Assembly: GCA_001794605.1 (NCBI GenBank)
Contig: MGKD01000013.1
Span: forward strand, 13,463 to 77,462
Reading direction: 5' to 3'
Origin: Candidatus Yanofskybacteria bacterium RIFCSPHIGHO2_12_FULL_45_19b
GTDB taxonomy: Bacteria; Patescibacteriota; Minisyncoccia; 2-02-FULL-40-12; IGHO2-12-FULL-4
Length of the DNA: 64,000 nt
Below, in pieces: positions 33,648 through 52,886 of this stretch (positions within the stretch are counted from its first letter, which is position 1; every line of letters begins with the position of its first letter). The translations under genes were made by a program, and so were the position numbers. The notes below the pieces were generated by a model. That model did not search any database. It was not told the origin of the DNA and was given only the letters and a program-made list of their open reading frames with translations.

Positions 33648-34472
33648 ATGGAAACTACCACCACAATTATTAAACCGCAGAAAAAGTTTTCCTTTTTAGA
33701 TTTAAAGGAGATCTGGGACCATAAAGGGTTGCTCTACTTTTTTACTTGGCGTGACCTCAAAATCCGCTACAAACAGACATTAGTAGGAATAGGCTGGGCA
33801 TTATTCCAACCCTTTGTCACAATGATTGTCTTTAGTATTTTCTTTGGCAATTTTGCTAAAATTCCTTCCGACGGAATTCCCTATCCGATTTTTGTTTATT
33901 CTGGACTTTTGTTTTGGCAATTTTTTTCTGCTTCCCTGGCCCAGGCCAGTAGTTCTCTGGTGAGCAATCAGAATATTATTACTCGAGTTTACTTTCCTCG
34001 TTTGATTTTGCCTTTTTATTCTACGCTTACTAATTTAATTGATTTTGGCGTGGCCTCGCTGATGTTGGTGGTGTTGATGTTTTATTATGGTTTTGCTCCG
34101 GAGTGGTTATTAATCTTATTAATTCCAGTATTAATTTTGATCACCTTTATGTTTGCAGTCGGGCTAGGCCTCTTCTTAGCCTCTCTTAATGTCAAATATC
34201 GAGACATTAAGTTTATCTTACCCTTCTTTATTCAGATGTTGTTATTTGTAACCCCGGTAATTTATCCACCCAGTATTTTGGGAAAGTATTCATGGTTGTT
34301 AGCTTTTAACCCGATGACGGGCGTGATTAAAACCGCCCGCACGATTTTGCTTGGCGGGCAAACGATTAACTGGCTACAGTTGGAAATTTCTAGTTTGGCC
34401 GCCGTAATTATTTTTGTTGTAGGGGTTGTCTATTTTAAAAAGACAGAAAAGTATTTTGCTGATCTTATCTAA
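33648..34472 (+). CDS. ABC-2 type polysaccharide export permease (Wzm/TagG-like)
   Basis: Six TM helices, ABC-2 signature region. Confidence 0.8.
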   Translation: METTTTIIKPQKKFSFLDLKEIWDHKGLLYFFTWRDLKIRYKQTLVGIGWALFQPFVTMIVFSIFFGNFAKIPSDGIPYPIFVYSGLLFWQFFSASLAQASSSLVSNQNIITRVYFPRLILPFYSTLTNLIDFGVASLMLVVLMFYYGFAPEWLLILLIPVLILITFMFAVGLGLFLASLNVKYRDIKFILPFFIQMLLFVTPVIYPPSILGKYSWLLAFNPMTGVIKTARTILLGGQTINWLQLEISSLAAVIIFVVGVVYFKKTEKYFADLI

Positions 34473-34478
34473 TTAGGT

Positions 34479-35735
34479 ATGGAAACTGTCATCCAAGTAA
34501 AAAACATCTCAAAGCGATATAAAATTACTCACTGGCAAGGTGGGTATCTAACCCTGCGTGATGTTATAAGTAATACTTTCAAACACCCCCTAAGGTTTTT
34601 TAAGAATAAAATGAGTAATATAATTTCGGGGGAGAGTCGAGAGGATTTTTGGGCCTTACGTGGTCTGAGTTTTTCGGTGCAAAAAGGAGAGGTGATTGGT
34701 ATTATTGGTGCTAATGGTGCTGGCAAGTCCACCCTACTTAAAATTCTAACTAAAATAACTCCACCCTCAGAAGGAGAGATAGTTTTGCGCGGTAAAGTTT
34801 CTTCTTTGTTGGAGGTGGGAACTGGTTTCCACCCCGAACTGACTGGTCGGGAAAATATTTTTTTCTATGGTGCGATCCTCGGAATGAAAAAGAAGGAGAT
34901 TGTTGATAAATTTGATCGCATTGTTGAATTTGCTGGTATGCAGAAGTTTTTGGATACACCAGTCAAAAAATATTCTTCCGGTATGTATGTACGCCTGGCT
35001 TTTTCAGTAGCCGCACACATGGAGCCAGATATTTTATTGATTGATGAGGTTTTAGCTGTGGGGGATGCTGAATTTCAAAAAAAGTGTTTAGAAAAAATGA
35101 AGAGTGTTGCGCGTGACGATAATCGCACCATTTTATTTATTAGCCATAACATGAATGCGGTCCGCGGGCTATGCAACCGTTGCGTGTTATTGGAAAAAGG
35201 GGAAATAAAAATGGTGGGTGATACCGAAGCGGTGATTAGTGCTTATCTTAAGCACCGGGAGGGTGAGTTTGGTAAAGCTGTTTTTGAGTACCCGACTGAC
35301 CAAAGCAAGCCTATCAACATTAAAAAAATTAAAATTCTTGGGGCAGATGGTACGGTTACGGCGCACCTAGAAGCGGGTATGCCATTTTCAATTGAGTTGG
35401 GGTATTCTGTCAACCAAGCGGTCGCAGCCTCACGAATATTTATTTCCTGTGTTAATGAGGAGGGGGTGGAGTTGTTTGTTTCTTGTGATACAGATAAACA
35501 GCCAGAGCTTTTTACCAACCGAGAGCCCGGTAACTACCGAGCGACTTTTCAATTTCCTGCTACCAATGAAATTTCACTGGCGGCGGGCGACTACTTTTTA
35601 AGAGTGCGTGTTACTTCTGATCCACAGGCCGATCACCTGATTCCATTGACCATAGAGAATTTAGCAAAAAGATTCGTGGAATTACCTGGTGTAATGGCAC
35701 TTGCCTCTAAGTGGCACTTAGAAAAAATCGAATAA
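34479..35735 (+). CDS. polysaccharide ABC exporter ATPase (Wzt/TagH-like) with C-terminal carbohydrate-binding extension
   Basis: Walker A GANGAGKST, signature YSSGMYVRLAF, Walker B LLIDEV. About 160-aa C-terminal beta-rich extension. Confidence 0.85.
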   Translation: METVIQVKNISKRYKITHWQGGYLTLRDVISNTFKHPLRFFKNKMSNIISGESREDFWALRGLSFSVQKGEVIGIIGANGAGKSTLLKILTKITPPSEGEIVLRGKVSSLLEVGTGFHPELTGRENIFFYGAILGMKKKEIVDKFDRIVEFAGMQKFLDTPVKKYSSGMYVRLAFSVAAHMEPDILLIDEVLAVGDAEFQKKCLEKMKSVARDDNRTILFISHNMNAVRGLCNRCVLLEKGEIKMVGDTEAVISAYLKHREGEFGKAVFEYPTDQSKPINIKKIKILGADGTVTAHLEAGMPFSIELGYSVNQAVAASRIFISCVNEEGVELFVSCDTDKQPELFTNREPGNYRATFQFPATNEISLAAGDYFLRVRVTSDPQADHLIPLTIENLAKRFVELPGVMALASKWHLEKIE

Positions 35736-35752
35736 ATTTTTTTCTTGTTAAT

Positions 35753-36958
35753 ATGAAAAAATACTTAAAATTACCGCCCGGAGTTAATCCTAATAAGAAT
35801 AATATTTTTCCAGTTAACCTACCCTATTATTTACTTACCCATAGCGCACACCTTGCTGATGATAAAGAGCAGAAGTGGGTGGTTTTTTGGGGAGTGCCAT
35901 TCCGACAACTACCGACTATCTATGCTGATGAAAAAGAGTTCATTCGGCAGGCCAACCTTTGTCTAGATTATGTACGACGAGGGTGCGTAGGTTGTAAACT
36001 ATTCTACAAAACTCATCCCAATGAAACCGACGAACAAACCTCACTTGATTTAACGGGGTTTCAAATTTTGTCACAGAAAGAAGTGGCGGAATTTTTTGTC
36101 TTGAAAAACTTTCACAAAATAAGACAGGTTTTTTCTACTTACTCTAGCGCGGCGATGACTGCTTATAAATTGGGTCTCGACGCTCACATTTTTCTGCCCT
36201 TGGTGGAACCGTCTTTGACCGAGCAGAATCGCAATGGCAACCGCGAATATTATAAGCATATGCCACCAGAATTCTTTATTGACAAGTTTAGTGCTTCTCC
36301 TAAAACCAATAAACTCAATATTCCTCAACAGCCCGATGCGGTTTTAAGGGAAAATCTTTTGGTGTTGCTAAAAGACCGCCCGGCTCAGACTATTTGGTTT
36401 ATTTTGGGAGATCCGGGTTCACTGACCTCGGTTATTTTACTGGCACGATTTATAAAAGAACTTGCTCCGCAGGCTGCTATCGGTTTAATCATTGAACGAC
36501 ATCATCGTTGGCAGGTAATGAATTTGGCAGAGGTAAAAACTTTTTTTGATCATATGCTGGTTTATCCGCGCTGGCTACCATCGTTGCGCCCAAATAAAAT
36601 TTGGGCGCAACTTAAAACTGCCTGGGCCTTACGTCGAGCACCGATTGCTCCGAACGATATAATCTTTGGTTTTAACTATACGGCCTTTGTGGAAAACTGT
36701 CTGCTCACCTACTTCCCCAGCAACCTAAAAGTGGCTTTTGTAAAAAAAGAAACCCTGGAGTTTTGTTATGGCTCAAAAGAAAAAGCCTTTTTTCAAAACT
36801 ACTTTTCACGCATTGGCCATCGTTTTTATGCCAGAGTAATCCAGCCTATTTTGGGACTGTACCCCACGGTTTTTTTAGAGGATCCGGTGCGAGTGGCTAA
36901 CTTTGACCGCTATCTTATGCCAATTAACGACCTGTATGATCAGGTGTATGTATATTAG
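35753..36958 (+). CDS. hypothetical protein with HP motif; paralog of 51714-52886; candidate CMP-sugar (sialyl/Kdo-type) glycosyltransferase
   Basis: Shares CLDY, THPNE/PHPDE, FDLDL.GF, LGL.AH.F and FVENC/FIENC blocks with the 51714 protein. Confidence 0.35.
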   Translation: MKKYLKLPPGVNPNKNNIFPVNLPYYLLTHSAHLADDKEQKWVVFWGVPFRQLPTIYADEKEFIRQANLCLDYVRRGCVGCKLFYKTHPNETDEQTSLDLTGFQILSQKEVAEFFVLKNFHKIRQVFSTYSSAAMTAYKLGLDAHIFLPLVEPSLTEQNRNGNREYYKHMPPEFFIDKFSASPKTNKLNIPQQPDAVLRENLLVLLKDRPAQTIWFILGDPGSLTSVILLARFIKELAPQAAIGLIIERHHRWQVMNLAEVKTFFDHMLVYPRWLPSLRPNKIWAQLKTAWALRRAPIAPNDIIFGFNYTAFVENCLLTYFPSNLKVAFVKKETLEFCYGSKEKAFFQNYFSRIGHRFYARVIQPILGLYPTVFLEDPVRVANFDRYLMPINDLYDQVYVY

Positions 36959-36961
36959 CCC

Positions 36962-37720
36962 ATGGATAATATACGCATCATTCCCCGCTTAGATATCAAG
37001 GGCCCCAATGTGGTTAAGGGGATTTTTAACGAGGGTTTGCGCATAGTTGGATCACCACAGGAACTGGCTACGCGTTATTACAAAGCCGGTGCTGACGAGA
37101 TAATCTATATGGATATAGTAGCCAGTCTATACCAAAGAAATTTAGATTTTGAACTTTTGAAATCAGTGGCTAACCATATTTTTATTCCACTTACGGTAGG
37201 GGGCGGTATTCGTTCAATCGGAGATATTAATAACGCACTTCGGGCGGGGGCCGATAAGGTGGCAATTAATACTTATGCCGTAAAAAATCCAAATTTTATT
37301 AAAGAAGCGGCACAGAAGTTTGGTAGTCAGTGTATAGTGCTTTCGGTGGAGGCTAAACAGAAGTCGGTTGACCTATGGGAAGCCTATATAGATGGAGGTA
37401 GAGAGAAAACTGGTATCGACGCAGTAGCTTGGATAAAGCGAGCTATTAAACTGGGCGTGGGTGAGGTGATGGTAAGCTCAATTGACAAAGACGGGTTGCG
37501 TGGTGGCTTTGCGACTGAGCTTTGTCAGGCTGTAACTGCTTTTGCATCGGTACCAGTAATTGTACACGGCGGGGCTGGTAAATTAGAGTCCGTAGCGGAG
37601 GTTCTAAAGCTTGCCAATCCTGATGCAGTGGCGATTGCATCAGCCTTTCACTACCAAGATTACTCAATAAAAAAGTTGAAAAACTTTTTACGGAGTAAAG
37701 AGTTTCCTATTCGACAATAA
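36962..37720 (+). CDS. HisF-like cyclase subunit (WbuZ-type, glycan amidotransferase module)
   Basis: IIPRLDIKGPNVVKG; (beta/alpha)8 HisF pattern. Confidence 0.8.
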   Translation: MDNIRIIPRLDIKGPNVVKGIFNEGLRIVGSPQELATRYYKAGADEIIYMDIVASLYQRNLDFELLKSVANHIFIPLTVGGGIRSIGDINNALRAGADKVAINTYAVKNPNFIKEAAQKFGSQCIVLSVEAKQKSVDLWEAYIDGGREKTGIDAVAWIKRAIKLGVGEVMVSSIDKDGLRGGFATELCQAVTAFASVPVIVHGGAGKLESVAEVLKLANPDAVAIASAFHYQDYSIKKLKNFLRSKEFPIRQ

Positions 37721-37721
37721 G

Positions 37722-38357
37722 ATGAAAAAGAAAACAAAACTAGCGATATTGGATTATGGCGTGGGCAATCTCTATAGTATTACCCGAGCGGTGGCTAATT
37801 TTTGTGATGATTTTATTATTACCGATGATCCGGAAGTAGTAGCCAGGGTTGACCGGTTAATTCTACCCGGTGTAGGGTCATTTGCCGCTGGCATGGCCGG
37901 TATACGCGTACGCAGTTTAGTAGATTCGATTAAACAGTTTGTGCAAACCGGTCGTCCGATTCTGGGTATTTGTTTGGGTGCTCAGTTGCTAATGACTAGG
38001 GGTTTCGAATTTGGTAATTTTACTGGTTTGGATATTATTCCAGGCGAGGTGGTAAAGTTGTCTGGTGTAGGTAAGGGAGTTAAAATCCCGCATATTGGTT
38101 GGGGGCAGATTAAGCCGAGCAGTTCCGGTAAAAAGGGAGTGTTGGCCGGAGTGTCCTCTGGCGCCTATGTATATTTTGTTCATTCTTTTATTATGCAGCC
38201 AAAGCGCCAAGAAGATGCTTTGACCACCACCATCTATGGTGAAAGCAGGTTCTGTTCCGCTATCCGGCACGAGAATGTCTGTGGACTACAGTTCCATCCT
38301 GAAAAAAGCGGTGCGGTAGGCATGCAGATAATTAATAATTTTATTAAACAAACCTAG
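37722..38357 (+). CDS. HisH-like glutamine amidotransferase subunit (WbuY-type)
   Basis: LAILDYGVGNLYSI, GICLGAQLL (catalytic Cys), HPEKS. Confidence 0.8.
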   Translation: MKKKTKLAILDYGVGNLYSITRAVANFCDDFIITDDPEVVARVDRLILPGVGSFAAGMAGIRVRSLVDSIKQFVQTGRPILGICLGAQLLMTRGFEFGNFTGLDIIPGEVVKLSGVGKGVKIPHIGWGQIKPSSSGKKGVLAGVSSGAYVYFVHSFIMQPKRQEDALTTTIYGESRFCSAIRHENVCGLQFHPEKSGAVGMQIINNFIKQT

Positions 38358-39575
38358 ATGACTAAAATTACTGCCAAATACGGCTTGCCGGCTAAGGTTA
38401 GTTTTTGTCGAAAGTGCGTAATGTCCAATCAAAAACCCAGTTCTACGGTGGAGTTTAAATATGCCTCAGGCGATAAGAAAAAAACCATAGCTTTTGACGC
38501 GGCCGGCGTATGTGATGCCTGCCACTTCGCCGAATATAAAGAAACGCAGATCGATTGGAAAAAGCGAGAAAAGCAATTGCGGGAGCTCTGCGATCGTTAC
38601 CGACGTACAGACGGCAGTTATGATTGTATTGTCCCGGGTAGTGGAGGTAAAGACAGTGCTTTTGCCTCCCATGTCTTAAAGTATAAGTATGACATGCATC
38701 CATTGACTGTTACCTGGGCACCACACCTTTATACCGACATTGGTTGGCGGAATTTTACCGCCTGGATTCATCAAGGAGGGTTTGATAATGTTTTGTTTAC
38801 TCCCAATGGGCGGGTGCACCGTCTGCTAACCAGGTTGGCTTTTAAGAACCTACTTCATCCTTTTCAGCCATTTATCTTTGGCCAGAAAAATATTGGTGCC
38901 AAATTTGCTTTAAAATTTAATGTTCCTCTGGTATTTTATGGTGAAAATCAAGCAGAATATGGCAATGGTAAATCGCCAAAAGAAAATGATATTGCCCAGG
39001 TAAGGCCAGAGTTTTTTTCCAGCGACGAAAGTATCGACACTATCATACTAGGGGGTGTCCCCGTTAAGAAATTGTTGGCCAAGGAGGGCTTGTCACGCAA
39101 CGATCTTGACCCTTATCTACCAGTATCTGCACGCGCCCTCAAAAAACAAAAAGTTCAAGTACACTACCTTGCGCATTATCTTAAGTGGGATCCGCAGGAA
39201 AACTTTTACTATGCCACTAAGCATACAGGCTTTCAGGCCAACACTGAACGTACCGAGGGTAGTTACTCAAAGTATAGCAGTATTGATGATAAGACTGACC
39301 CCTTCCACTACTATACAACACTAATTAAGTTTGGTATTGGGCGTGCTACCTATGATGCTGCGCAAGAGATTCGCAGTCGAAAAATCACTCGGGCAGAAGG
39401 AGTAGCCTTGGTTCGACGTTACGACCAGGAATTTCCAGAACGAAGCTTTAAGGATTTCTTGGAATATATTGATATTAGCAAAGAGGAATTTTGGCGGATA
39501 ATTGATCGAGCCCGCTCGCCTCACATTTGGAAAAAGGAAAAAGGACGGTGGGTATTAAGACATCCAATAGAATAA
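38358..39575 (+). CDS. N-acetyl sugar amidotransferase (WbuX/WbpG-like PP-loop ATPase)
   Basis: PP-loop CIVPGSGGKDSAF. N-terminal Cys-rich region. Confidence 0.7.
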   Translation: MTKITAKYGLPAKVSFCRKCVMSNQKPSSTVEFKYASGDKKKTIAFDAAGVCDACHFAEYKETQIDWKKREKQLRELCDRYRRTDGSYDCIVPGSGGKDSAFASHVLKYKYDMHPLTVTWAPHLYTDIGWRNFTAWIHQGGFDNVLFTPNGRVHRLLTRLAFKNLLHPFQPFIFGQKNIGAKFALKFNVPLVFYGENQAEYGNGKSPKENDIAQVRPEFFSSDESIDTIILGGVPVKKLLAKEGLSRNDLDPYLPVSARALKKQKVQVHYLAHYLKWDPQENFYYATKHTGFQANTERTEGSYSKYSSIDDKTDPFHYYTTLIKFGIGRATYDAAQEIRSRKITRAEGVALVRRYDQEFPERSFKDFLEYIDISKEEFWRIIDRARSPHIWKKEKGRWVLRHPIE

Positions 39576-39578
39576 AAT

Positions 39579-40559
39579 ATGCGCGATATATTTAAAGATT
39601 ATAAAGTTTTTTCAATTAATCCGAGTAAATTACGTAGTCCGGGATTTTTTAGAAATATGTTGGAATACCGCACAGCAGTGATGCGGCGCTACCGTTCCGC
39701 ACTTAAATCTCGGACAGAGTTTTCTTGTCCGTTATGCGGGGCAACTAAGGGAAGGGAGTTTTTAAAATATAAAAATTACCTTTTGTTGGAGTGTTCTCGT
39801 TGTGGGCTAGTCTCCCCTAATATTGATTTTTCTAAGGTGGACGGGCGTGAGCTATATGACGACCCGGCTTGTATTAAAGACACTACACGCGAGGTATTGG
39901 ACAATTATCAATACCGTAAGCAAACCTATGCTCCGGAGAGATTACAATATATTTTAGAAAAAACTGGTTTACGGTCACGCGCACTGCGTCTGTTAGATGT
40001 TGGTTGTGGCCCGGGTTATTTTTTGAGTCATCTGCACGATAAAAAGATACGCTATAAGGGGTTAGAGCTGGCCAAGTTTTTGGTAGAAATTTGTCAAAAG
40101 CAGGGGCTTAATGTTGCGATGAACGACGTTGCCCTTGAGCCAGATAAAGCCTATAACGTAATTACGCTTTTTGACGTATTGGAGCACGTGGCGGACCCAG
40201 TCTCTTTTCTTAAGATCCTAAAGAGTAAGTTGGTCAAGGGTGGGTATATAATAGCCTACATACCAAATATTCACTCCTTGGCCTATCAACTGATGGGTCA
40301 ATGGCAAAATACCCTGGTACCGTTTCAGCATTTTTGTTTTTATGATCCGGCCTCGCTAAAGTTGCTTGCTCGCAAAAGTGGTCTTACTGTCAATTCGCTA
40401 GACTATTATGGGTTGGATCTGCTTGATTACTTTTATATGAAACAGGATCAGGACGGAGTTAACTATCATCAGAAATTGAGCGAAGCTATTCCATTGTTGC
40501 AGGCAGTTATTGATAAGCAGAAACTGAGTAACCATATGCGGGTGGTTTTTAAGAAATAA
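39579..40559 (+). CDS. class I SAM-dependent methyltransferase with N-terminal Zn-ribbon
   Basis: CPLCG...CSRCG; LDVGCGPGYF. Confidence 0.7.
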   Translation: MRDIFKDYKVFSINPSKLRSPGFFRNMLEYRTAVMRRYRSALKSRTEFSCPLCGATKGREFLKYKNYLLLECSRCGLVSPNIDFSKVDGRELYDDPACIKDTTREVLDNYQYRKQTYAPERLQYILEKTGLRSRALRLLDVGCGPGYFLSHLHDKKIRYKGLELAKFLVEICQKQGLNVAMNDVALEPDKAYNVITLFDVLEHVADPVSFLKILKSKLVKGGYIIAYIPNIHSLAYQLMGQWQNTLVPFQHFCFYDPASLKLLARKSGLTVNSLDYYGLDLLDYFYMKQDQDGVNYHQKLSEAIPLLQAVIDKQKLSNHMRVVFKK

Positions 40560-40563
40560 TTTA

Positions 40564-45227: not shown

Positions 45228-46544
45228 ATGAAGTTTACTCAATCAAACAAGTTACGCAAGCGGGCACATGCGCTTATCCCTGGTGGAGCGCATACCTATA
45301 GCAAAGGAGATGATCAATTTCCCAAACTGTCGCCCGGCTTTATTGTTAAGGGCAAAGGGGCTTATGTTTGGGATGCAGATGGAAATAAGTTTTTAGATTG
45401 GGCGATGGGGTTACGTTCTACCACGCTTGGTCATGGCTATGTCTCAGTAGTTCAGGCGGTAAAAAAACAACTACCTTTCGGAGCTAATTTTAGTCGCCCG
45501 TCTATCTTAGAGGTGGAGTTGGCTGATTTATTGACTAAGATTATCCCTTGTGCGGAAATGGTAAAGTTTGCAAAAAACGGTTCAACCATTACCACAGCGG
45601 CAGTAAAGTTGGCGCGTGCTCACACCAAGCGCGATATAGTGGCAGTTTGTTCTGATCATGCCTTTTTTAGTTATGACGATTGGTTTATTGGTACCACTCC
45701 AGCTGATGCTGGTGTTCCCCAGGCGATTAAAGATCTAAGCGTTACTTTCAAATTTAACGATTTAGAAAGCGTTCGTGCTTTATTTAAAAAATATCCCAAG
45801 CAAATTGCCTGTGTTATTTTGGAACCAGCTACCGAAGTGGAGCCACGAGATAACTTCTTGCATGGCGTACAGGCGCTCTGCCAAGAAAATGGGGCGGTGT
45901 TTATTTTAGATGAAATGATTTCGGGTTTTCGCTGGCATCTCAAGGGGGCACAACATACCTACAAGATTACTCCCGATCTGGCTACCTATGGCAAGGGGAT
46001 TGCTAATGGTTTCTCGGTCTGTGTCCTGGCCGGTAAACGTGAAATTATGGAGCGCGGAGGCATCCAGGGTGGCCATGAACGAGTATTTCTTATTTCTACC
46101 ACGCATGGAGCAGAGAACCATGCTTTAGCCGCAGCGATTGCCACCATAAAAGAAATACAAGGAAAAAAAGTTATTCCGCACCTGTACCATATTGGCGCTC
46201 TACTACAGACCCGTCTTAATGCTATTGCTAAAAAATATAAACTGGGCGAGATTGTCAATGTTTTTGGCGAGGTGTCATGTCGGCTGGCGACAACTTTTGC
46301 TGCCGTCGGTACTTATACTAATTTTCAAGTTAAGACCTATTTTCTGCAAGAGTTGATCAGTCAAGGAATTTTGTTCAACGGCTATTTCGCACCCAGTTAT
46401 TCTCATGGCAAGCGCGAAATAGAAAAAACCGTGCTGGCTTGGGACTATGCTTGCCGAAAACTGCAACAGGCTGTAACTAATAAAGATTTAGAGAAAAAGT
46501 TAATAGGCGATCCAGTTAAGCCGGTGTTTCGCAAGTATAATTAG
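45228..46544 (+). CDS. class III PLP aminotransferase (glutamate-1-semialdehyde aminomutase-like)
   Basis: Class III fold pattern. DEMISGFRW motif. Confidence 0.7.
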   Translation: MKFTQSNKLRKRAHALIPGGAHTYSKGDDQFPKLSPGFIVKGKGAYVWDADGNKFLDWAMGLRSTTLGHGYVSVVQAVKKQLPFGANFSRPSILEVELADLLTKIIPCAEMVKFAKNGSTITTAAVKLARAHTKRDIVAVCSDHAFFSYDDWFIGTTPADAGVPQAIKDLSVTFKFNDLESVRALFKKYPKQIACVILEPATEVEPRDNFLHGVQALCQENGAVFILDEMISGFRWHLKGAQHTYKITPDLATYGKGIANGFSVCVLAGKREIMERGGIQGGHERVFLISTTHGAENHALAAAIATIKEIQGKKVIPHLYHIGALLQTRLNAIAKKYKLGEIVNVFGEVSCRLATTFAAVGTYTNFQVKTYFLQELISQGILFNGYFAPSYSHGKREIEKTVLAWDYACRKLQQAVTNKDLEKKLIGDPVKPVFRKYN

Positions 46545-46561: not shown

Positions 46562-47584
46562 ATGAACAAGAAAATAAAGTTTCTACAGGTGGGACTGGGG
46601 TCAATGGGAAAACGACGTATTCGTTGTCTGTTGCATTTAGGTATACAGTCGGAACAAATTTTTGGTTTTGACCCCGTGCCGAGTAAGCGGACGAAGGCGG
46701 AAAGCGAATATGCCATTAAAACTTTTAGTAACTTTAAACAAGCAGTGGCTACTGTAAACCCCGATGTCTACATCGTCTCTACTCCACCGGATAAGCATGC
46801 CCCCTACTTTCTTTTCGCTGCAAGGCAGAAAAAACACGTTTTTGTAGAAGCAACTACGCTTGCCGATGGTTATCGACAACTAGAAAAAATGCAGGACGGT
46901 AGTTTTATTGCCGCCGCCTCTTGTAGTTGGCGTTATCTCCCGGCAATTAAAAAGATCGGTCAATTGGTGAAACAAGGCCGTATTGGGAAAGTTCTGTCTT
47001 TTCAGTATCACATGGGGCAGTATCTACCGGATTGGCACCCCTGGGAAGACTATCGTAAGGTATATTTCGCTAAAAAAGTAACTGGTGCTTGTCGAGAAAT
47101 GTTTCCCTTTGAGTTGGTTTGGATTAATCACATTCTGCAGTCGTCAGTAAAACGGATCAGTGGCCTGGTCAGGAAGTTGTCTGATTTAGACATGTCGGCG
47201 GATGACCTTTATGCAGCGGTGTTAGAGTATAAAAGCGGGGTGGTAGGCACGGTCAGTATTGATGTTTTGGCGCGTACTGCTTTACGCACCCTACGCCTGG
47301 TTGGTACAGAGGGAGTTTTGGATTGGGACTGGCTTAACTATCAGATAAAAATTTTTTCAGTGCGTAAAAAAAAGTGGCAGACTATTTCTTTGCGAGCCGG
47401 TAGGGCGGAGAAAAATTATGTTACCACCGAAGATATGTATCAGGAGGAAATTAAACAGTTTCTGGATGCCATCGCGGGCAAGCAGGCCTATCCCTATAGT
47501 TTTGCGGAAGATCAGCAGATTCTAAATACCACTTTTGCTTTAGAAAAAAGTTCCAGAACCGGAAAGACTTGCCGGGTAGCTTAA
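46562..47584 (+). CDS. Gfo/Idh/MocA-family NAD(P) oxidoreductase
   Basis: KFLQVGLGSMGKRR Rossmann N-terminus. Confidence 0.7.
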   Translation: MNKKIKFLQVGLGSMGKRRIRCLLHLGIQSEQIFGFDPVPSKRTKAESEYAIKTFSNFKQAVATVNPDVYIVSTPPDKHAPYFLFAARQKKHVFVEATTLADGYRQLEKMQDGSFIAAASCSWRYLPAIKKIGQLVKQGRIGKVLSFQYHMGQYLPDWHPWEDYRKVYFAKKVTGACREMFPFELVWINHILQSSVKRISGLVRKLSDLDMSADDLYAAVLEYKSGVVGTVSIDVLARTALRTLRLVGTEGVLDWDWLNYQIKIFSVRKKKWQTISLRAGRAEKNYVTTEDMYQEEIKQFLDAIAGKQAYPYSFAEDQQILNTTFALEKSSRTGKTCRVA

Positions 47585-47590
47585 TATAAA

Positions 47591-48742
47591 ATGGCGACTA
47601 CGAAGAAAAAAATTGCATATATTTCTGGTACGCGAGCTGATTTCGGCATTATGACCGCTATTTTAGAGGCGATTCGACAGCATCCAGCCCTGGATTTACA
47701 GTTGTATGCTACTGGGGTTCATCTGACTCCGGGATTTGGTACAACTTATCGGATGATTCAAAAACTTTTTTCACGGACCAAGCTAATTCGCGCAAGCTTT
47801 CAGTCGGATGATTTCTTTGGGGTAGCGCGTTTTTCTGGTCAGTTTATCTCTAAACTAGTTAGTATCTTTTCTAAGGATCGTCCAGATTTTGTGCTGTTAT
47901 TGGGGGATCGTCCAGAGCAGTTATGTGTGGCGCTGGTCTGTTTGTATTTGGGTATTCCCGCCGGGCATTTCAGAGGAGGTGAGGTTTCTTCTACTTTTGA
48001 CGAGACTGCTCGCCATGCCATTACCAAGCTGGCGAGTTTGCATTTTCCCGCCACCAAGGAGGCAGCCAAGAGAATTGAGAAAATGGGGGAGGAAAAATGG
48101 CGCATTCACACGGTGGGAGAGGCATCTCTAGACGTAATCTTGCACCAACCATTGCCCAGTCGAGAGGCCGTATTAAAGTTTCTGGGATTAGCGGCGGGAC
48201 AAAAGTTTATTTTACTAACACAACATCCAGTAAGCTATGAGCTGGCCGACACTAGTCAACAGATTCGGGAAACTATAAAAGCGGTTAAAGCCATCGGCTT
48301 GCCAGTTGTAGTAACCTACCCGCATGCTGATGCTGGCGGAAGAAAGATTATTCTTGAAATTGAAAGAGAAAGAGATAATTCATTATTTAAAATTTTTCCT
48401 AGTTTGGAATACAAACTTTTTTTAGCGTTAGAACGAGAAGCGGCCGTTTGGGTCGGTAACTCCAGCGGTGCCTTGGTAGAATCCTCTTCTTTTGCCACGC
48501 CAGTAGTAAATATCGGTACTCGGCAAAAAGGTCGTCAACGTGGTGGAAACGTGCTTGACGTTGGTTATGATCAGGATGAAATTATAGTTGCCATCAAAAA
48601 ATCTCTAGCCCTAAGCTACCTAGCTAAGTTAAAAAGACTAAAAAATCCTTGGGGGGATGGCAAGACCGGGAAACGGGTGGCAGAAATTATAGGAAATCTA
48701 ACTATTGACAATAAACTGTTAAACAAACAGATCGCTTATTGA
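47591..48742 (+). CDS. UDP-N-acetylglucosamine 2-epimerase NeuC-like (second paralog)
   Basis: IAYISGTRADFGIM, HFRGGE, GNSSG. Confidence 0.75.
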   Translation: MATTKKKIAYISGTRADFGIMTAILEAIRQHPALDLQLYATGVHLTPGFGTTYRMIQKLFSRTKLIRASFQSDDFFGVARFSGQFISKLVSIFSKDRPDFVLLLGDRPEQLCVALVCLYLGIPAGHFRGGEVSSTFDETARHAITKLASLHFPATKEAAKRIEKMGEEKWRIHTVGEASLDVILHQPLPSREAVLKFLGLAAGQKFILLTQHPVSYELADTSQQIRETIKAVKAIGLPVVVTYPHADAGGRKIILEIERERDNSLFKIFPSLEYKLFLALEREAAVWVGNSSGALVESSSFATPVVNIGTRQKGRQRGGNVLDVGYDQDEIIVAIKKSLALSYLAKLKRLKNPWGDGKTGKRVAEIIGNLTIDNKLLNKQIAY

Positions 48743-48828
48743 TAAGTGTGAGTCACCGTAGGTTAAATATGACAAGTCTAAATAAATGTGTTAGAAGTTT
48801 AGAAGATTCATTAAAAAGGGGGTTTGGC

Positions 48829-49602
48829 ATGTCTAAACTGAAAAAAGCAGTACTTTTGGGGAGAAAAAAGGGAGCTAGCGATGCGCTGATCCATCTATGG
48901 CGCTTAGGGGTGGAGGTTCCCTTGGTGGTAGTAGAGGGTTCTGACTTGGCGGAGTCGGCGGGGCGATTAGGTATTAAGGTCTTGTTTGACGATGCTGAAT
49001 TATATACCCTAATTGAACAAGGCGATCAGTTGGTGACGGAGGTGGATTTGGTGGTTTCTTATTTGTTTGTAAAACGGATTAAGGAGCCACTTTTTAAGCT
49101 GGGTCGCCTGGGTTGTCTGAACTTTCATCCAGCACCGTTACCGGATTACAAAAGTCGAGCGGGCTACAACACAGCAATTTTGGATCGCAAAAATGAGTTT
49201 GGGGTCAGTGTTCATTTTATCGACTCAGAGCAATTTGATGCTGGTCCGATTATTGAGGTGTTGCGTTGGCCGATTGATTCGCAAGCAGAGACAGTGCTTT
49301 CACTAGAGAGTACCGCCCAGGAAAAACTGTTCGTATTATTTAAGAAAACGATACAACGTTTTATGCGCGGTGAACAAATTATCACTTTCGCTAACGCCGG
49401 AGGATACTATTTAACCTCTAAACAATTGGAAGCCATGAAAGAAGTTGATCTAGAAAAAGATTCACTGGAGGAAATTGATCGCAAGATCAGGGCGTTCTTT
49501 TTTCCACCCTATACCGGGGCGTACATTAGAGTGGGTGGCCAGAAGATTACCCTAGTAAACCAGACAGTTCTCGATCTGTTAGCTAGAAAGATCACCAAAT
49601 GA
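48829..49602 (+). CDS. formyltransferase-domain protein (sugar N-formyltransferase/Fmt-like)
   Basis: NFHPAPLPDYKSRAGYNTAIL, like the NIHPSLLPKYRG formyltransferase motif. Confidence 0.55.
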   Translation: MSKLKKAVLLGRKKGASDALIHLWRLGVEVPLVVVEGSDLAESAGRLGIKVLFDDAELYTLIEQGDQLVTEVDLVVSYLFVKRIKEPLFKLGRLGCLNFHPAPLPDYKSRAGYNTAILDRKNEFGVSVHFIDSEQFDAGPIIEVLRWPIDSQAETVLSLESTAQEKLFVLFKKTIQRFMRGEQIITFANAGGYYLTSKQLEAMKEVDLEKDSLEEIDRKIRAFFFPPYTGAYIRVGGQKITLVNQTVLDLLARKITK

Positions 49603-50732
49603 AATATCCGATTGCAAAACCCTATATTGGGAAGGAGGAAAAAGCTGTGGTAGCTAAGGTTTTGCGTTCCGGTGTTCTGAGTATTGGGCCAGAGGTGGTA
49701 GCTTTTGAAAAAGCCTTTGCGCTGAAACTTGGAACTAAGTTTGCTTGCGCGGTTTCTAGTGGTACGGCCGGACTGCACCTGACTATGTTGGCCGCCGGAC
49801 TTAAAAAGGGGGATGAGGTTTTAACTTCCCCCTTTTCTTTTATTGCGTCTGCCAATGCCATTCTTTATGTAGGCGCTACCCCGGTATTTGTAGACATCAA
49901 TCCGGTTAGTTTCAATATTGATCCGGACAAAATTGAAGAAAAGATTACCACCAAGACCAAGGCTATTTTGGTAGTACATATTTTTGGACAGTCTGCTGAT
50001 ATGAAACCAATTCTAAAACTAGCCAATAAATATAAGTTAAAAGTAATTGAGGATGCTTGTGAGTCTTTGAATGCCAGCTATCACGGCAAAAAGGTGGGGA
50101 CCTTTGGTGAGTCGGCCGTGTTTGCCTTCTATCCCAATAAACAGATGACTACGGGTGAAGGCGGTATGATAGTTACTAACGACCGATCAGTTGATGCTTT
50201 GTGCCGTAGTCTGCGTAATCAAGGACGCTCTGGTAATATGCAGTGGTTAGATCACGAACGACTGGGCTATAATTATCGCCTGGATGAGATGAGCGCCGCC
50301 CTGGGACGAGTGCAACTGCAAAAGTTAGACTGGTTAATTGCCGAGAAACGACGTATCGCCGCGCTTTACAAGAAGCATCTGGCGCCGTATCAAAAATTTT
50401 TACTATTGCCAAGAATTATATCAGGCAATATTCATAGTTGGTTCGTTTACGTGATCAATATCAAAAACCCTTTAATAAAAAGAGACGCAGTGATTGAAGA
50501 CCTAGAAAAACTAGGTATCAGCACCAAGGCTTATTTGCCCTCTATCCACCTGTTTAGTTTTTATAAAAAACTATTTAAGTATAAGCGGGGAGATTTTCCA
50601 GTTTCTGAAGCGGTGAGCGATTGTTCACTCGCCCTCCCGTTCTATATTGGCTTAAAAGAAAAAGATATAAAAATAATCAGTAATATAGTGGTAGCTACAC
50701 TAGAAAAACATGAAAAATATCTTCAAAAATAA
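49599..50732 (+). CDS. DegT/DnrJ/EryC1/StrS-family sugar aminotransferase (PseC/LegC-like)
   Basis: AFYPNKQMTTGEGGMIVTND. Confidence 0.85.
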   Translation: MKYPIAKPYIGKEEKAVVAKVLRSGVLSIGPEVVAFEKAFALKLGTKFACAVSSGTAGLHLTMLAAGLKKGDEVLTSPFSFIASANAILYVGATPVFVDINPVSFNIDPDKIEEKITTKTKAILVVHIFGQSADMKPILKLANKYKLKVIEDACESLNASYHGKKVGTFGESAVFAFYPNKQMTTGEGGMIVTNDRSVDALCRSLRNQGRSGNMQWLDHERLGYNYRLDEMSAALGRVQLQKLDWLIAEKRRIAALYKKHLAPYQKFLLLPRIISGNIHSWFVYVINIKNPLIKRDAVIEDLEKLGISTKAYLPSIHLFSFYKKLFKYKRGDFPVSEAVSDCSLALPFYIGLKEKDIKIISNIVVATLEKHEKYLQK

Positions 50733-51711
50733 AATAATTCTGGTTACCGGTGGCACCGGCAGTATTGGTTCTAGTATCGTTCGACAGCTGCTTGCCTATG
50801 GACCAAAGCAGGTCAGAGTATTATCGCGTAACGAAACGCGCCAGTACGAACTGTTGGAAGCGCTAGATTATCCCGACAACCTACGGATGTTTATCGGTGA
50901 CATTAGGGATCGCGACCGTCTGCAACTGGCTTTTCGTAATGTGGATATAGTCTTTCATGCCGCAGCATTGAAACATGTTCCATTTTGTGAATATAACCCA
51001 ACTGAGGCAATGAAGACCAATATTGTTGGTTCACATAATGTTATTGATGCGGCTGTTCATGCTGGTGTAAAAAAGGTAATTGCCATTTCTACCGATAAGG
51101 TGGCCAATCCCTTTAATGTATTGGGGGTATCGAAATTGATGATGGAAAAACTTTTTATTAACTCGGATTTTATCACGGGGGATGATATAAAGTTTTCTTG
51201 TGTGCGTTTTGGCAATGTTGCCTGGTCAGATGGTTCAGTACTGCCGTTTTGGAAAAGGCAGGCCGAAAAGAAGGGGTCTATCAACGTAATGAATGGTAAG
51301 TCTACGCGTTTTTTTATGTCTATTGACCAAGCCGTTGGACTCACCTTGCAAGCGGCCGAGTTAAGTCAGGGGGCGGATATTTTTGTACTTAAAATGCCAG
51401 CGATTAGTCTAGCCGATTTAGCCAAGATTTTTATTAAAAAATATTACCCCAAGGCAAAAATTAAAGAGGTAGATAGCCGCCCAGGAGATAAGCTACACGA
51501 AGATTTGATAGGAGTTAACGAGTGGAACCGAGAGATTTGGAGCAATCAAAAGATGTTTGTCCTATTGGCTGCTACCAGTATCTACAATCAAGCCGAGAGA
51601 CCCAAGAAGTATTTTGGAGTAAAATATCCTGGCTTTAAACTGGTGACTGGTGCTTTGAGTTATTCTTCGCAGGAAAATATTGATACCGATGCTGTGGTGA
51701 AGATTATCTAA
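50710..51711 (+). CDS. UDP/GDP-GlcNAc 4,6-dehydratase, PseB/LegB/CapD-like SDR
   Basis: ILVTGGTGSIGSSI; FHAAALKHVPFCEYNP. Confidence 0.85.
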   Translation: MKNIFKNKIILVTGGTGSIGSSIVRQLLAYGPKQVRVLSRNETRQYELLEALDYPDNLRMFIGDIRDRDRLQLAFRNVDIVFHAAALKHVPFCEYNPTEAMKTNIVGSHNVIDAAVHAGVKKVIAISTDKVANPFNVLGVSKLMMEKLFINSDFITGDDIKFSCVRFGNVAWSDGSVLPFWKRQAEKKGSINVMNGKSTRFFMSIDQAVGLTLQAAELSQGADIFVLKMPAISLADLAKIFIKKYYPKAKIKEVDSRPGDKLHEDLIGVNEWNREIWSNQKMFVLLAATSIYNQAERPKKYFGVKYPGFKLVTGALSYSSQENIDTDAVVKII

Positions 51712-51713
51712 AC

Positions 51714-52886
51714 ATGCCTAACGACGCTCGTCTCATTACCTGGCCGTATTATGCCTTAGGAGTAGCACCGTCCTTAGCTCCAATGGAAGAGTGGGTGATT
51801 TTTTTTGGTGCAGATTTCTATAATATGACCGAGATTGATATCCCGGCTTTTATTGAAAAAACTAACCAGTGCCTAGACTATTTGAGAAAAAAGTTTCCAG
51901 GCAGTAAATTGATCTATCGTCCACATCCGGATGAAAGCAGGGAGCTGTTCGACCTAGATTTAGGTGGGTTTTTTATTCAGCGAGATGGCCAATCCGCCGA
52001 AGAATTTCTTTGGGCTAATCAAAGAAATATCAAACACGCTTTGTCGGTTTGTTCCACCTCTTCAATTGCAGCGCTTAGTTTAGGTTTAAATGCTCATGCT
52101 TTTTACAAATATTTCCGGGGGGTTTTTCGTGGTGCACACAAGATTTTTGTGGACAAATATTTTAGTGATCTGCCTGGCGACTTTTTTATTGAAGATTTAA
52201 ACAGTGCTCCACCGGAAAATAAGATAAATATATTGCCAGATCGGACTTTTATTGAGGAGTTTAGACAAATTATTTCTGTTAATTCTGGCTCACTGTGGTT
52301 TATCGTGGCAGAGAGCCGTCTCTTGCTGGTCATTACTGCTCTAACTAAGTTAGTAAAAAGCTTTTTTCCCGATCGGCAGATTAACTTAATAATTTCCGGA
52401 CATCATCGTTGGCAGGGTCAAACCCTAACGGCTTTGCATCAAGATTTTCACCAGGTTTTGGTATTTCCCCGGTGCTTCTATTCGCTAAAGCTGAATAAGT
52501 TATTTTCTGCTTGGCGTACGGCTAAAAAAATAAAGAAATTATCAGTTAACTCAAGTTCCATTTTTATTGGTTTGGCACACCATAGTTTTATTGAAAATTG
52601 TTTTATTTCTTATCATCCAAAACCTTTTAAGCTGGCTTTTATACCGGAAAAAACCTGGGAAATAACTTTCCAACCAGAAAGGTCTGGTTTTAATCTCAAA
52701 AACCTTCGTGTTACCAAAGCTGGCTGGTTTTATAACTATTTTTTGGAACCATTTTTAGGTCTCAATCGCACCAGCTATCAGCAATATAGTGAACCAAGCC
52801 ACTTAGCATTTATTCGGTTGCAAAAGTCGTTGGAGCAACTATATGACCGAGTTTTTCTATTCAAAAACTGTCCACCCTCTCATTAG
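51714..52886 (+). CDS. hypothetical protein with HP motif; paralog of 35753-36958
   Basis: Same conserved blocks as its paralog. Last gene of the operon. Confidence 0.35.
   Translation: MPNDARLITWPYYALGVAPSLAPMEEWVIFFGADFYNMTEIDIPAFIEKTNQCLDYLRKKFPGSKLIYRPHPDESRELFDLDLGGFFIQRDGQSAEEFLWANQRNIKHALSVCSTSSIAALSLGLNAHAFYKYFRGVFRGAHKIFVDKYFSDLPGDFFIEDLNSAPPENKINILPDRTFIEEFRQIISVNSGSLWFIVAESRLLLVITALTKLVKSFFPDRQINLIISGHHRWQGQTLTALHQDFHQVLVFPRCFYSLKLNKLFSAWRTAKKIKKLSVNSSSIFIGLAHHSFIENCFISYHPKPFKLAFIPEKTWEITFQPERSGFNLKNLRVTKAGWFYNYFLEPFLGLNRTSYQQYSEPSHLAFIRLQKSLEQLYDRVFLFKNCPPSH

Follow-up and report, generated by a model that had tools for sequence, protein, structure and literature searches.

A putative nonulosonate surface-glycan operon from a Candidatus Yanofskybacteria genome and its pair of candidate glycosyltransferases

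Introduction

The O-antigen of Legionella pneumophila serogroup 1 is a poly-alpha-2,4-Leg5Am7Ac chain (Leg, legionaminic acid) associated with a Wzm/Wzt exporter and N-methylated by a homologue of PtmH (PMC3766260). The locus for this polymer is the closest whole system to the one described here, which occupies positions 33648-52886 of a 64,000-nucleotide stretch of contig MGKD01000013.1 (GenBank assembly GCA_001794605.1; this whole stretch is called the window, and all positions refer to it), belonging to a metagenome-assembled genome (MAG) of Candidatus (Ca.) Yanofskybacteria. Nineteen successive forward-strand genes encode there an ABC-type exporter, enzymes for the synthesis, cytidine monophosphate (CMP) activation and decoration of a nonulosonic acid, and two paralogous proteins, named GTa and GTb. 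The operon is given a somewhat better than even chance of being a surface-glycan locus that makes a CMP-activated, heavily N-modified nonulosonate, attaches it and exports the product.

Few transferases are known for sugars of the legionaminic and pseudaminic types (PMC5420450). If the function proposed below for GTa and GTb is correct, these proteins would supply a missing enzyme class for the assembly of polymers of the legionaminic/pseudaminic (Leg/Pse) type, together with a handle on the surface biology of the Candidate Phyla Radiation (CPR).

GTa and GTb, a candidate family of glycosyltransferases

GTa and GTb share 32% identity over their whole length (BLASTP E 1e-64) and bracket the biosynthetic genes (Table 1). 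Their open reading frames (ORFs), together with those for a class-III aminotransferase and a Gfo/Idh/MocA oxidoreductase, are the four operon genes absent from the first-pass annotation of this DNA. No sequence match to either protein was found in Pfam, NCBIfam or the PDB, and relatives are rare: a word-index search of 5.8 billion proteins returned 11, and an exhaustive hidden Markov model (HMM) search of 1.84 billion cluster representatives returned 303, of which 92 at E<1e-30. Only one of ten sampled family members contains a Pfam domain, due to its fusion to a methyltransferase.

The AlphaFold model of GTa, computed from the family alignment (pLDDT 89.7, pTM 0.87), comprises two Rossmann-like domains in a GT-B-type fold similar to that of solved bacterial sialyltransferases. 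Its closest folds are polysialyl-, sialyl- and 3-deoxy-d-manno-octulosonate (Kdo)-transferases, with a polysialyltransferase as the best match and the beta-Kdo transferase KpsC as the second; nearly all of the best structural neighbours are enzymes using CMP-activated ulosonic acids. The family alignment contains an invariant 'Y-K/R-x-H-P' (H88 and P89 in GTa), and this HP motif is found in all 65 of the two-domain members. The same motif is common to the otherwise unrelated sialyltransferase families GT38, GT52 and GT80, where mutagenesis and the structure of PmST1 showed that it contacts the phosphate and the carboxylate of CMP-Neu5Ac (PMC2169525), and it is also present in Tannerella transferases for Pse and Leg (PMC5420450). 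A D/E-D/E-G motif is not among the invariant columns of the alignment; the other domain has instead invariant HHRW and ENC.

The order of the two domains is peculiar, since the HP domain is N-terminal in GTa and GTb and C-terminal in all known GT-B sialyltransferases. A sister group of proteins of about 400 amino acids (aa) displays the reverse arrangement: in HMM alignments, confirmed by BLAST, residues 10-190 of GTa match target residues 205-390, and residues 206-396 match 1-200. Among 93 near-full-length sequences (91 of the 92 database matches of 360-460 aa, these 91 giving a domain match, plus GTb and the gene of the related locus L046), 34 have the GTa order, 31 the swapped, canonical order and 28 were matched in one domain. 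These domain orders place GTa and GTb in a circularly permuted branch of a GT-B-like superfamily absent from the catalogues.

In six of seven contexts (the window, L036, L037, L034, L046 and L039/L040) the family members adjoin NeuB and/or CTP_transf_3 genes; the exception is L038, where the member is accompanied by dTDP-sugar genes. In L034, a Parcubacteria MAG, the orthologs of GTa and GTb (47% identity for the latter) are adjacent and followed by a GT9 gene, and in L039/L040 a swapped-order member is found with Wzm, a Wzt bearing a Wzt_C domain, NeuB and CTP_transf_3; two more swapped-order members lie on contigs too short to reveal their neighbours. On the basis of fold, HP motif and genomic association, GTa and GTb are probably CMP-nonulosonate-dependent glycosyltransferases (GTs). 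A more far-reaching proposal is that they form a new permuted GT-B family and maybe act as poly-(Leg-type) polymerases, coating a small-genome CPR episymbiont with an amidinated, N-methylated and N-formylated polymer; this is put forward tentatively, its chances being rated a little short of even.

A different role for the two proteins would be the modification of nucleotide-sugars, as NeuC-like epimerases/hydrolases or TagF-like phosphotransferases, with transfer performed by a 'mini-Maf' protein and a GT9 enzyme encoded on the two sides of the operon; the GT9 gene that follows the paralog pair in L034 would agree with it. The specificity of the HP motif for the sialyltransferase group (PMC2169525), the presence of two NeuC enzymes already in the operon, and the siting of GTa beside the exporter and of both paralogs around the biosynthetic genes, as fits transferases, all argue against such a role, which is regarded as quite unlikely. 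As candidate transferases, GTa and GTb would define a small, soluble and delimited family with a testable HP motif, which would open the transferase question to experiment and could give glyco-engineering tools for bacterial sialic acids.

Biosynthetic enzymes and identity of the sugar

The single synthase of the operon belongs to the Neu/Leg clade. It scores 368 bits with the NeuB_NnaB model and 233 bits with PseI (cutoff 340), and it aligns end to end with Neisseria meningitidis NeuB (429 bits, 56% identity), compared with 129 bits for a solved PseI. Residues E25, K53, N74, K129, E134, H215, H236, D247 and R314 are conserved, while N184 is replaced by Ser. In GenBank the protein is mis-annotated as 'polyhydroxyalkanoate biosynthesis repressor PhaR' (OGN19555.1). 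The two hydrolysing 2-epimerases, NeuC1 and NeuC2, are 32% identical to each other, and both have the Acinetobacter baumannii diNAcBac 2-epimerase (5zlr) as best solved relative; NeuC1 scores nearly the same with the LegG-type enzyme and with human GNE (183 and 177 bits), whereas NeuC2 leans toward the LegG type (198 bits with 5zlr, 153 with GNE). The two CMP-nonulosonate synthetases are 45% identical and preserve intact AR(G/S)GSKG and (Q/E)PTSPLR motifs; an ortholog of the second, with 66% identity, is encoded in L036.

The remaining steps involve a dehydratase, a DegT-family aminotransferase and a formyltransferase. Against solved structures, the dehydratase scores 232 bits with Helicobacter pylori PseB (FlaA1), 229 with Bacillus thuringiensis Pen, 209 with CapE, 202 with FnlA and 152 with PglF; it has Leu at the position where PseB has a catalytic Tyr and PglF and CapE have Met. 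The DegT enzyme scores under the NCBIfam cutoffs with both PseC (315, cutoff 424) and LegC (278), and its best solved relative is GDP-perosamine synthase. The formyltransferase retains the catalytic Asn/His ('LNFHP') and Asp ('DAGPII'), and its best PDB match is the GDP-perosamine N-formyltransferase 5vys; such relatives of the two enzymes support a putative 4-amino N-formylation chemistry. No GNAT or hexapeptide acyltransferase was detected in Pfam and NCBIfam scans of the operon proteins; a 7-N-formyl group is therefore the most economical prediction.

Judging from these family assignments, the six-step gene set leading from uridine diphosphate (UDP)-N-acetylglucosamine (GlcNAc) to a CMP-activated 5,7-diamino-tetradeoxy-nonulosonate is complete. 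The synthesis would start with dehydration of UDP-GlcNAc on C-4 and C-6, followed by transamination on C-4 by the DegT enzyme and by N-formylation, in place of the usual N-acetylation; NeuC2 would then remove UDP with concomitant 2-epimerisation, NeuB would condense the product with phosphoenolpyruvate, and one or both of the cytidylyltransferases would activate it with CTP. The predicted product is a 5-acetamido-7-formamido-3,5,7,9-tetradeoxy-nonulosonate of the Leg family, either Leg itself or an epimer. The two 2-epimerases, the Neu/Leg-clade synthase and the CMP-synthetases correspond to those of the Legionella/Acinetobacter-type UDP route to legionaminic acid; of the C-4 aminotransferase and N-acetyltransferase pair that this route requires, the second is lacking, the formyltransferase taking that step.

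Pseudaminic acid, made through the Pse pathway, was also considered, because NCBIfam names the dehydratase PseB, the aminotransferase PseC and each of the two cytidylyltransferases PseF as its best match, and because the best solved relative of the dehydratase is H. pylori PseB. All four scores lie under the curated cutoffs (298 of 408 bits for PseB, 315 of 424 for PseC, 153 and 150 of 206 for PseF), as does that of the synthase with PseI, which is of the NeuB type by comparison with both profiles and individual synthases; PseG and PseH were not found among the operon proteins in the same scans, and the two hydrolysing 2-epimerases have no use in the Pse route. This makes pseudaminic acid a highly improbable product. 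The legionaminic-type route of the first-pass annotation stands to the extent that hydrolysing epimerases and a Neu/Leg synthase speak against Pse, but not as regards stereochemistry, in view of the inverting-type dehydratase with its Leu residue. Indeed, an inverting dehydratase combined with a 2-epimerising hydrolase would lead to a sugar of the 8-epi-legionaminic/acinetaminic type rather than to Leg; from the sequences, 8-epi-Leg or another epimer appears as likely as Leg.

Several points weigh against the route as drawn. The enzyme families are observed, but all the substrates are inferred. The DegT enzyme and the formyltransferase have GDP-perosamine enzymes as nearest solved relatives, so that UDP is a presumed nucleotide carrier. 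The dehydratase is nearer to the inverting PseB/CapE/FnlA enzymes than to the retaining PglF and has no canonical Tyr, so that the sugar may not be Leg. The slot of the formyltransferase is occupied in L046 by a methyltransferase, the acyltransferase expected there having been ruled out; the slot is therefore better described as that of a 'modifier of the 4-amino group', with no fixed acyltransferase. The class-III aminotransferase and the Gfo/Idh/MocA oxidoreductase have no explained role in the route. Finally, the family scans of the window identified neither a phosphoglycosyltransferase for initiation nor an LCP ligase or an enzyme of the Wzy_C type.

Operon organization

The region 33648-52886 is an unbroken run of forward-strand ORFs, with 19 genes if one takes the start codons that independent gene callers chose on metagenome contigs of identical sequence. 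With these starts, 13 of the 18 junctions are gaps and five are overlaps of 4-23 nucleotides (nt); 12 gaps measure 0-17 nt, and the remaining one, before the formyltransferase gene, 26-86 nt depending on the start used. The packing is operon-like, and the long co-directional operon described in the first-pass annotation is confirmed, whereas its statement that genes overlap throughout by 1-23 nt has to be corrected. Scans for promoters and terminators inside and after the operon gave nothing above shuffled controls; terminator-like sites matching the consensus number 14 within 33648-52886, against 20.1 expected, with no excess. The forward-strand gene run extends on to 57372. Five or more contigs, assembled separately from different samples, contain the operon at 98-100% identity, which excludes an artefact of assembly.

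Pfam and NCBIfam HMMs gave family assignments to all 17 recognisable genes. The enzymes named in the first-pass annotation, i.e. the dehydratase and the DegT aminotransferase, the NeuB-family synthase, the two NeuC-like epimerases, the two CMP-nonulosonate synthetases, the formyltransferase in place of an N-acetyltransferase, the WbuX/WbpG-like amidotransferase with its HisH and HisF partners, the two Zn-ribbon methyltransferases and the Wzm/Wzt exporter with a C-terminal carbohydrate-binding extension, were all recovered as such, and none of the key enzymes failed family assignment or had lost its catalytic residues. Directly upstream of Wzm, a small HTH_17 protein is a candidate dedicated regulator; it is kept at the same position in L036 (66% identity) and is found in L017, a MAG of the Omnitrophota, beside the NeuB cluster (62%).

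Table 1. Features of the operon and of the adjoining genes (bits are HMM scores, with cutoffs where given).
Feature	Coordinates	Strand	Remarks
B12-binding radical SAM enzyme, 514 aa	30504..32048	-	Pfam B12-binding and Radical_SAM
'Mini-Maf', MptE-like/DUF115, 340 aa	32051..33073	-	candidate Maf-type nonulosonate transferase
Small ORF, 64 aa	33063..33257	-	KGNY...KLGGS..VKK..W[KR]; called in L001; first cassette gene
HTH_17/excisionase-type DNA-binding protein, 81 aa	33380..33625	+	Pfam HTH_17 39.5 bits; TIGR01764
Wzm-type ABC-2 permease	33648..34472	+	ABC2_membrane 60 bits; galactan Wzm/KpsM models matched under cutoff
Wzt-type ABC ATPase with C-terminal carbohydrate-binding domain	34479..35735	+	ABC_tran 83 bits; Wzt_C 42.1 vs 30.4
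GTa, 401 aa, two-Rossmann orphan	35753..36958	+	invariant HP motif; predicted CMP-nonulosonate GT, permuted GT-B order
HisF-like cyclase-fold subunit (WbuZ type)	36962..37720	+	His_biosynth 219 bits; WbuZ TIGR03572 251.5, under 299.7 cutoff
HisH-like glutaminase subunit (WbuY type)	37722..38357	+	TIGR01855 198 bits vs 105; GICLG and HPE motifs
WbuX-family N-acetyl sugar amidotransferase, PP-loop ATP pyrophosphatase	38358..39575	+	TIGR03573 377.5 bits vs 203.2
SAM methyltransferase MT1, N-terminal Zn ribbon	39579..40559	+	Methyltransf_23 88 bits; CPLC/CSRC
SAM methyltransferase MT2, N-terminal Zn ribbon	40573..41577	+	Methyltransf_23 87.5 bits; CYFC/CEAC
NeuB nonulosonate synthase, Neu/Leg clade	41587..42630	+	NeuB and SAF domains, Pfam 247 bits
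NeuC1 hydrolysing UDP-sugar 2-epimerase, module 1	42615..43781	+	TIGR03568 387 bits vs cutoff 236
CMP-nonulosonate synthetase 1	43786..44505	+	CTP_transf_3 92 bits (cutoff 22.6); ARGGSKG, QPTSPLR, DVDTPEDL
CMP-nonulosonate synthetase 2	44492..45226	+	CTP_transf_3 72 bits (cutoff 22.6); paralog of synthetase 1
Class-III (GSA-aminomutase-like) aminotransferase	45228..46544	+	PRK06209 601 bits vs 486
Gfo/Idh/MocA oxidoreductase, module 2	46562..47584	+	Pfam GFO_IDH_MocA and C-terminal domains
NeuC2, second hydrolysing 2-epimerase, module 2	47591..48742	+	TIGR03568 362 bits vs cutoff 236
Sugar N-formyltransferase	48829..49602	+	Formyl_trans_N 50.9 bits vs 26.1
DegT-family sugar 4-aminotransferase	49599..50732	+	DegT_DnrJ_EryC1 401 bits; 70% ortholog in L046
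UDP-GlcNAc 4,6-dehydratase, soluble PseB/CapE/FnlA-like	50710..51711	+	Polysacc_synt_2 302 bits
GTb, paralog of GTa, last operon gene	51714..52886	+	HP motif 'YRPHPDE'
Secreted Thr/Ser/Gly-rich repeat protein, 320 aa	52981..53943	+	signal peptide; ~45-aa repeats 'GGTxDTxFEVGGTASISG'; no family match
GT9-family glycosyltransferase	56281..57372	+	Glyco_transf_9 56 bits; 48% ortholog directly after GTa/GTb pair in L034

Amidino and methyl decoration, and accessory enzymes

The genes for the HisF-like, HisH-like and WbuX proteins are contiguous, with gaps of 0-1 nt, and constitute a WbuX/WbuY/WbuZ triad; WbuX has the SGGKDS motif at residue 95 and N-terminal CxxC pairs. Using ammonia provided by the HisH/HisF pair, WbuX would convert the 5-N-acetyl group to an acetamidino group. 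The S-adenosylmethionine (SAM)-dependent methyltransferases MT1 and MT2 are 25% identical and each has two N-terminal CxxC pairs; orthologs of MT1 are present in L036, L037 and L046. The two enzymes are predicted to methylate the acetamidino group, as occurs in Legionella and Campylobacter.

The class-III aminotransferase belongs to a very large family (8000 proteins or more at E<1e-60) in which every member bears the automatic name glutamate-1-semialdehyde (GSA) aminomutase. Some members are naturally fused to CTP_transf_3 (P0264 and P0282; 696 aa), one such fusion lies inside a PseB/DegT/GNAT/aldo-keto-reductase/NeuB cluster (L042), and CTP_transf_3, Aminotran_3 and aldo-keto reductase genes occur together in L034 (1-1933). 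The O-antigen locus of L. pneumophila serogroups 6/12 has a class-III aminotransferase, a cytidylyltransferase and an aryl-alcohol dehydrogenase near HisF/HisH/WbuX-like genes (PMC3694923). Its recurrence in such clusters with CTP_transf_3, and usually with an aldo-keto reductase or another oxidoreductase, identifies the class-III aminotransferase as a recurrent, uncharacterised nonulosonate accessory module, and in this context the automatic name is almost certainly wrong. An analogy is offered by the omega-transaminases of aminoglycoside pathways; by comparison with them, the enzyme may introduce an amino group at an oxidised carbon or take part in making an uncommon N-acyl substituent. As for the Gfo/Idh/MocA oxidoreductase, orthologs are found next to NeuB' and NeuC2 in L046 (56%) and in L045 (49%), and this conserved member of module 2 could serve epimerisation.

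A mosaic of two nonulosonate modules

Comparison with related loci revealed two different syntenic blocks. The first part of the operon (module 1: GT, HisF, HisH, WbuX, MT, MT, NeuB, NeuC1, CMP-synthetase) is syntenic with L036 and L037, the order in L036 being exporter, GT, HisF, HisH, WbuX, MT, MT, NeuB, NeuC and two CMP-synthetases. When NeuB was the query, more than 20 loci were recovered, and in these the neighbouring epimerase is always an ortholog of NeuC1 (42-57% identity) and never of NeuC2. Conversely, the loci recovered with NeuC2 (L046-L049) contain a CMP-synthetase, Gfo, a second synthase (NeuB'), NeuC2, a gene X, DegT (58-70%) and the dehydratase (46-57%), in this order. Identity between NeuB' and the NeuB of the window is no more than 30-38%; in the window, the gap between Gfo and NeuC2 is 6 nt, exactly at the position of NeuB'.

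This synteny with both types of loci, and the missing NeuB' at the 6-nt gap, show that two modules have been fused in the operon. The L036-type module would have contributed the GT, the amidotransferase triad, the two methyltransferases, NeuB, NeuC1 and the first CMP-synthetase; the L046-type module the second CMP-synthetase, Gfo, NeuC2, the modifier of the 4-amino group, DegT and the dehydratase, with loss of its own synthase. The fusion accounts for the occurrence of two NeuC enzymes and two CMP-synthetases with a single NeuB. L046, by itself, also has a GTa-like gene, the triad and MT1, indicating that the amidino/methyl decoration and a GTa-type transferase travel with either module. The mosaic structure shows nonulosonate diversity arising by module recombination. 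Beside its nonulosonate genes L046 also encodes a 786-aa Wzy_C protein (O-antigen ligase/PglL-like; 15544-17904) with tetratricopeptide repeats; in related organisms the last step may accordingly be of the oligosaccharyltransferase or ligase type.

The duplications can be read in another way, namely that two nonulosonates are made: NeuC1, NeuB and the first CMP-synthetase would produce a neuraminic-type sugar from UDP-GlcNAc, perhaps then amidinated and methylated, and the module 2 set a 5,7-diamino sugar through the same promiscuous NeuB, with GTa and GTb each transferring one of the two sugars to give a hetero-oligomer. Every step except NeuB is indeed duplicated, along with the two GT paralogs; the synthase has 56% identity with a genuine synthase of Neu5Ac, and Legionella NeuB accepts both substrates; NeuC1 scores almost equally with LegG-type and GNE enzymes, while NeuC2 leans toward LegG. 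Moreover, L007, L017 and L037 contain module 1, and no DegT-type aminotransferase was recognised in the flanks examined, which extend to 10 kb in L017 but are short in L007 and L037, where the contigs end; L007 has two ORFs of the short-chain dehydrogenase/reductase (SDR) type downstream. Against this, a simple explanation for the duplicates is also given by the joining of the two modules and the loss of NeuB', so that redundancy need not mean two products; scores do not separate Neu from Leg synthases, and the Ser in place of meningococcal N184 hints at a different substrate. The production of two nonulosonates is accordingly held to be unlikely.

Export and assembly of the glycan

The exporter consists of an ABC-2 permease and of an ATPase whose residues 276-384 form a Wzt_C domain, an arrangement typical of ABC export with a carbohydrate-binding module; the best NCBIfam matches of the ATPase are TagH/Wzt, i.e. 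TagH-type teichoic acid exporters. In the preferred scheme of a single decorated nonulosonate, GTa and GTb would transfer or polymerise the sugar onto a lipid-linked acceptor at the cytoplasmic face of the membrane, and Wzm/Wzt would export the finished chain, the C-terminal domain of Wzt presumably reading its terminal residue.

The same domain is relevant to a further possibility, in which the nonulosonate would be only a chain-terminating cap or a side branch on a heteropolysaccharide made by GT4 and GT2 enzymes and would be read by Wzt_C. In Klebsiella O12 the C-terminal domain of Wzt recognises a beta-Kdo cap. Five GT4 genes and one GT2 gene are located upstream on the same strand (20060-26425); the beta-Kdo transferase KpsC is the second-best structural match of GTa, and one member of the GTa/GTb family is fused to a methyltransferase, a type of enzyme frequent in chain terminators. 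This block of GT genes, however, is set apart from the operon by a divergent cassette and could serve another glycan; the best fold match of GTa is a polysialyltransferase, and the precedent in Legionella is a homopolymer (PMC3766260). A cap or side branch is rated as somewhat less likely than not.

Host and cell envelope

The operon proteins match exactly those of GenBank records OGN19543-OGN19567, from the Ca. Yanofskybacteria MAG, and the same exact proteins are also found in KKS14413-KKS14436, in a bin labelled Ca. Daviesbacteria GW2011_GWB1_41_5. The host is a bacterium of the CPR (Parcubacteria; Ca. Yanofskybacteria, Rifle aquifer groundwater); the prefix ANAN16 of the samples probably denotes the Anantharaman 2016 study of that aquifer. 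Ultra-small CPR cells from Rifle, observed by cryo-electron microscopy, have neither outer membrane nor lipopolysaccharide (LPS). Wzm/Wzt therefore cannot serve a classical O-antigen in such a host, and the glycan would finish attached to the wall, a lipid anchor or a surface protein. Since most biosynthetic pathways are missing from CPR bacteria, a 19-gene operon for one decorated sugar, within a glycosylation-rich stretch of about 40 kb, points to a surface glycan as central to a CPR lifestyle of attachment or evasion.

A scan of GTDB species genomes with NeuB gave matches of up to 68% identity, spread across many phyla. The closest loci include other CPR phyla (Staskawicz-, Paceibacter-, Peregrini- and Sungiibacteria), indicating that nonulosonates are probably common across the CPR. 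In a full-text literature search no paper paired 'Patescibacteria' with 'nonulosonic', and the sole mention of CPR in the literature searched is a passing note on sialic acid genes in Peregrinibacteria (PMC4736985); neither CPR nor the class-III aminotransferase module is mentioned in a paper on the Vibrionaceae nab cluster or in one on the phylogeny of nonulosonic acid (NulO) synthases.

Neighbouring genes

Directly upstream and divergent from the operon is a cassette of three genes, for a small ORF, the mini-Maf and a B12-binding radical SAM enzyme, which recurs in the same order in L036, L043 (an Elusimicrobia MAG) and L044; in L044 it is followed by CTP_transf_3 and Capsule_synth genes. 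The mini-Maf has an MptE-like/DUF115 core with a Maf fold (model pLDDT 86.9); only this core aligns with full-length Maf proteins (~600 aa), and later structural matches are archaeal HPPK (13.5) and GT42 and GT29 sialyltransferases (8.2-8.9). By its model, the protein is a Maf catalytic core devoid of flanking domains. The radical SAM enzyme has weak NCBIfam similarity to radical SAM C- and P-methyltransferases. A possible role of the cassette is to add the nonulosonate to a protein or peptide, with the radical SAM enzyme perhaps methylating either partner; no flagellar genes were found in the window.

Between the upstream GT genes and the cassette, the region 26428-30441 encodes a small SMR/EamA-like membrane protein, a PMT_2 protein (ArnT-like GT-C), a GT2 enzyme similar to polyprenyl-phosphate hexose synthases (AglJ/ArnC-like) and a methyltransferase; by sequence similarity, these genes make up a putative module for extracytoplasmic sugar transfer, and the same module precedes the operon in L036.

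Downstream, the 320-aa repeat protein is kept after GTb in sibling genomes, and no tandem repeat was detected beneath it at the DNA level. Two further secreted or membrane proteins are encoded after it on the same strand; one of them, a secreted protein of 313 aa (54399-55340) with a poly-Gly tract followed by a Ser/Thr/Pro linker, has no family match. The 320-aa and the 313-aa proteins are plausible glycoprotein targets or surface fibres, although for the first of them membership of the system is uncertain. The GT9 enzyme probably belongs to the same glycan system; a methyltransferase is also encoded downstream on the forward strand.

Insertion sequence (IS) transposases of the rve family, at 19085-19978 and 57394-58218, both on the reverse strand, flank a glycosylation region of about 37 kb, and an IS200-like Y1 transposase is found further upstream (4735-5394, forward strand), a number of mobile genes unusual for a CPR genome. 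There is no evidence of a composite transposon, the two flanking rve transposases being only 41% identical. On the reverse strand, 60356-62656 encodes a 766-aa protein in which a GT4-type enzyme is fused to a C-methyltransferase for sugars (Methyltransf_14 and a Zn-binding Methyltransf_13 domain); L034, L039 and L041 have related C-methyltransferases in the vicinity of the same gene families. The start of the window (17-3242 and 7393-11046) encodes proteins with Big_5 and dockerin domains and a 1217-aa protein with no family match, presumably located at the cell surface.

Comparison with known systems

The flagellin glycosylation system of Campylobacter jejuni (legB/C/H/G/I/F, ptmG, ptmH, pseA, Cj1314c/Cj1315c, maf) has in common with this locus the enzyme logic leading to Leg5Am7Ac and its N-methyl forms, a PP-loop amidotransferase next to HisH/HisF-like genes and a Maf-type transferase nearby. 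The Campylobacter parallel, already drawn in the first-pass annotation, is valid as a mechanistic model, but the closest whole system is that of Legionella serogroup 1 (PMC3766260). The C. jejuni route uses GDP-GlcNAc (LegB, PtmE), whereas here the dehydratase is of the UDP-type, soluble and PseB-like, and a guanylyltransferase is absent; furthermore, in C. jejuni the target is flagellin, modified in the cytoplasm, while this locus has an ABC exporter, most likely no flagellum and a Maf reduced to a 340-aa core.

With the GT38, GT52 and GT80 families and with KpsC, KpsS and WbbB, GTa and GTb share the HP motif in the nucleotide-binding domain and the coupling to genes for CMP-ulosonate synthesis. 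They differ from these sialyl- and beta-Kdo transferases in having no sequence homology to them, an N-terminal HP domain, and HHRW and ENC motifs instead of D/E-D/E-G. As regards export, the systems for Escherichia coli O9a, Klebsiella O12 and Geobacillus S-layer glycans have the same combination of Wzm and a Wzt_C-bearing Wzt, with synthesis completed in the cytoplasm before export; the envelope here is of the monoderm type.

The features in common with the L. pneumophila serogroup 1 locus are Wzm/Wzt, NeuA/B/C-type genes close to the neisserial and E. coli enzymes, and acetamidino formation with HisH/HisF-like genes in the locus (PMC3766260, PMC3694923). The PtmH-like methyltransferase of Legionella, which produces N-methyl- and N,N-dimethyl-acetimidoyl groups (PMC3766260, PMC3694923), can be likened by its description to MT1 and MT2. 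Conversely, the present host is a CPR bacterium with neither LPS nor outer membrane, and the prediction is a 7-N-formyl rather than a 7-N-acetyl group; there are two copies each of NeuC and of the CMP-synthetase, a class-III aminotransferase and a Gfo/Idh/MocA oxidoreductase are additional, and a mini-Maf/B12-radical SAM cassette is attached. The most significant difference is the candidate permuted GT-B pair formed by GTa and GTb.

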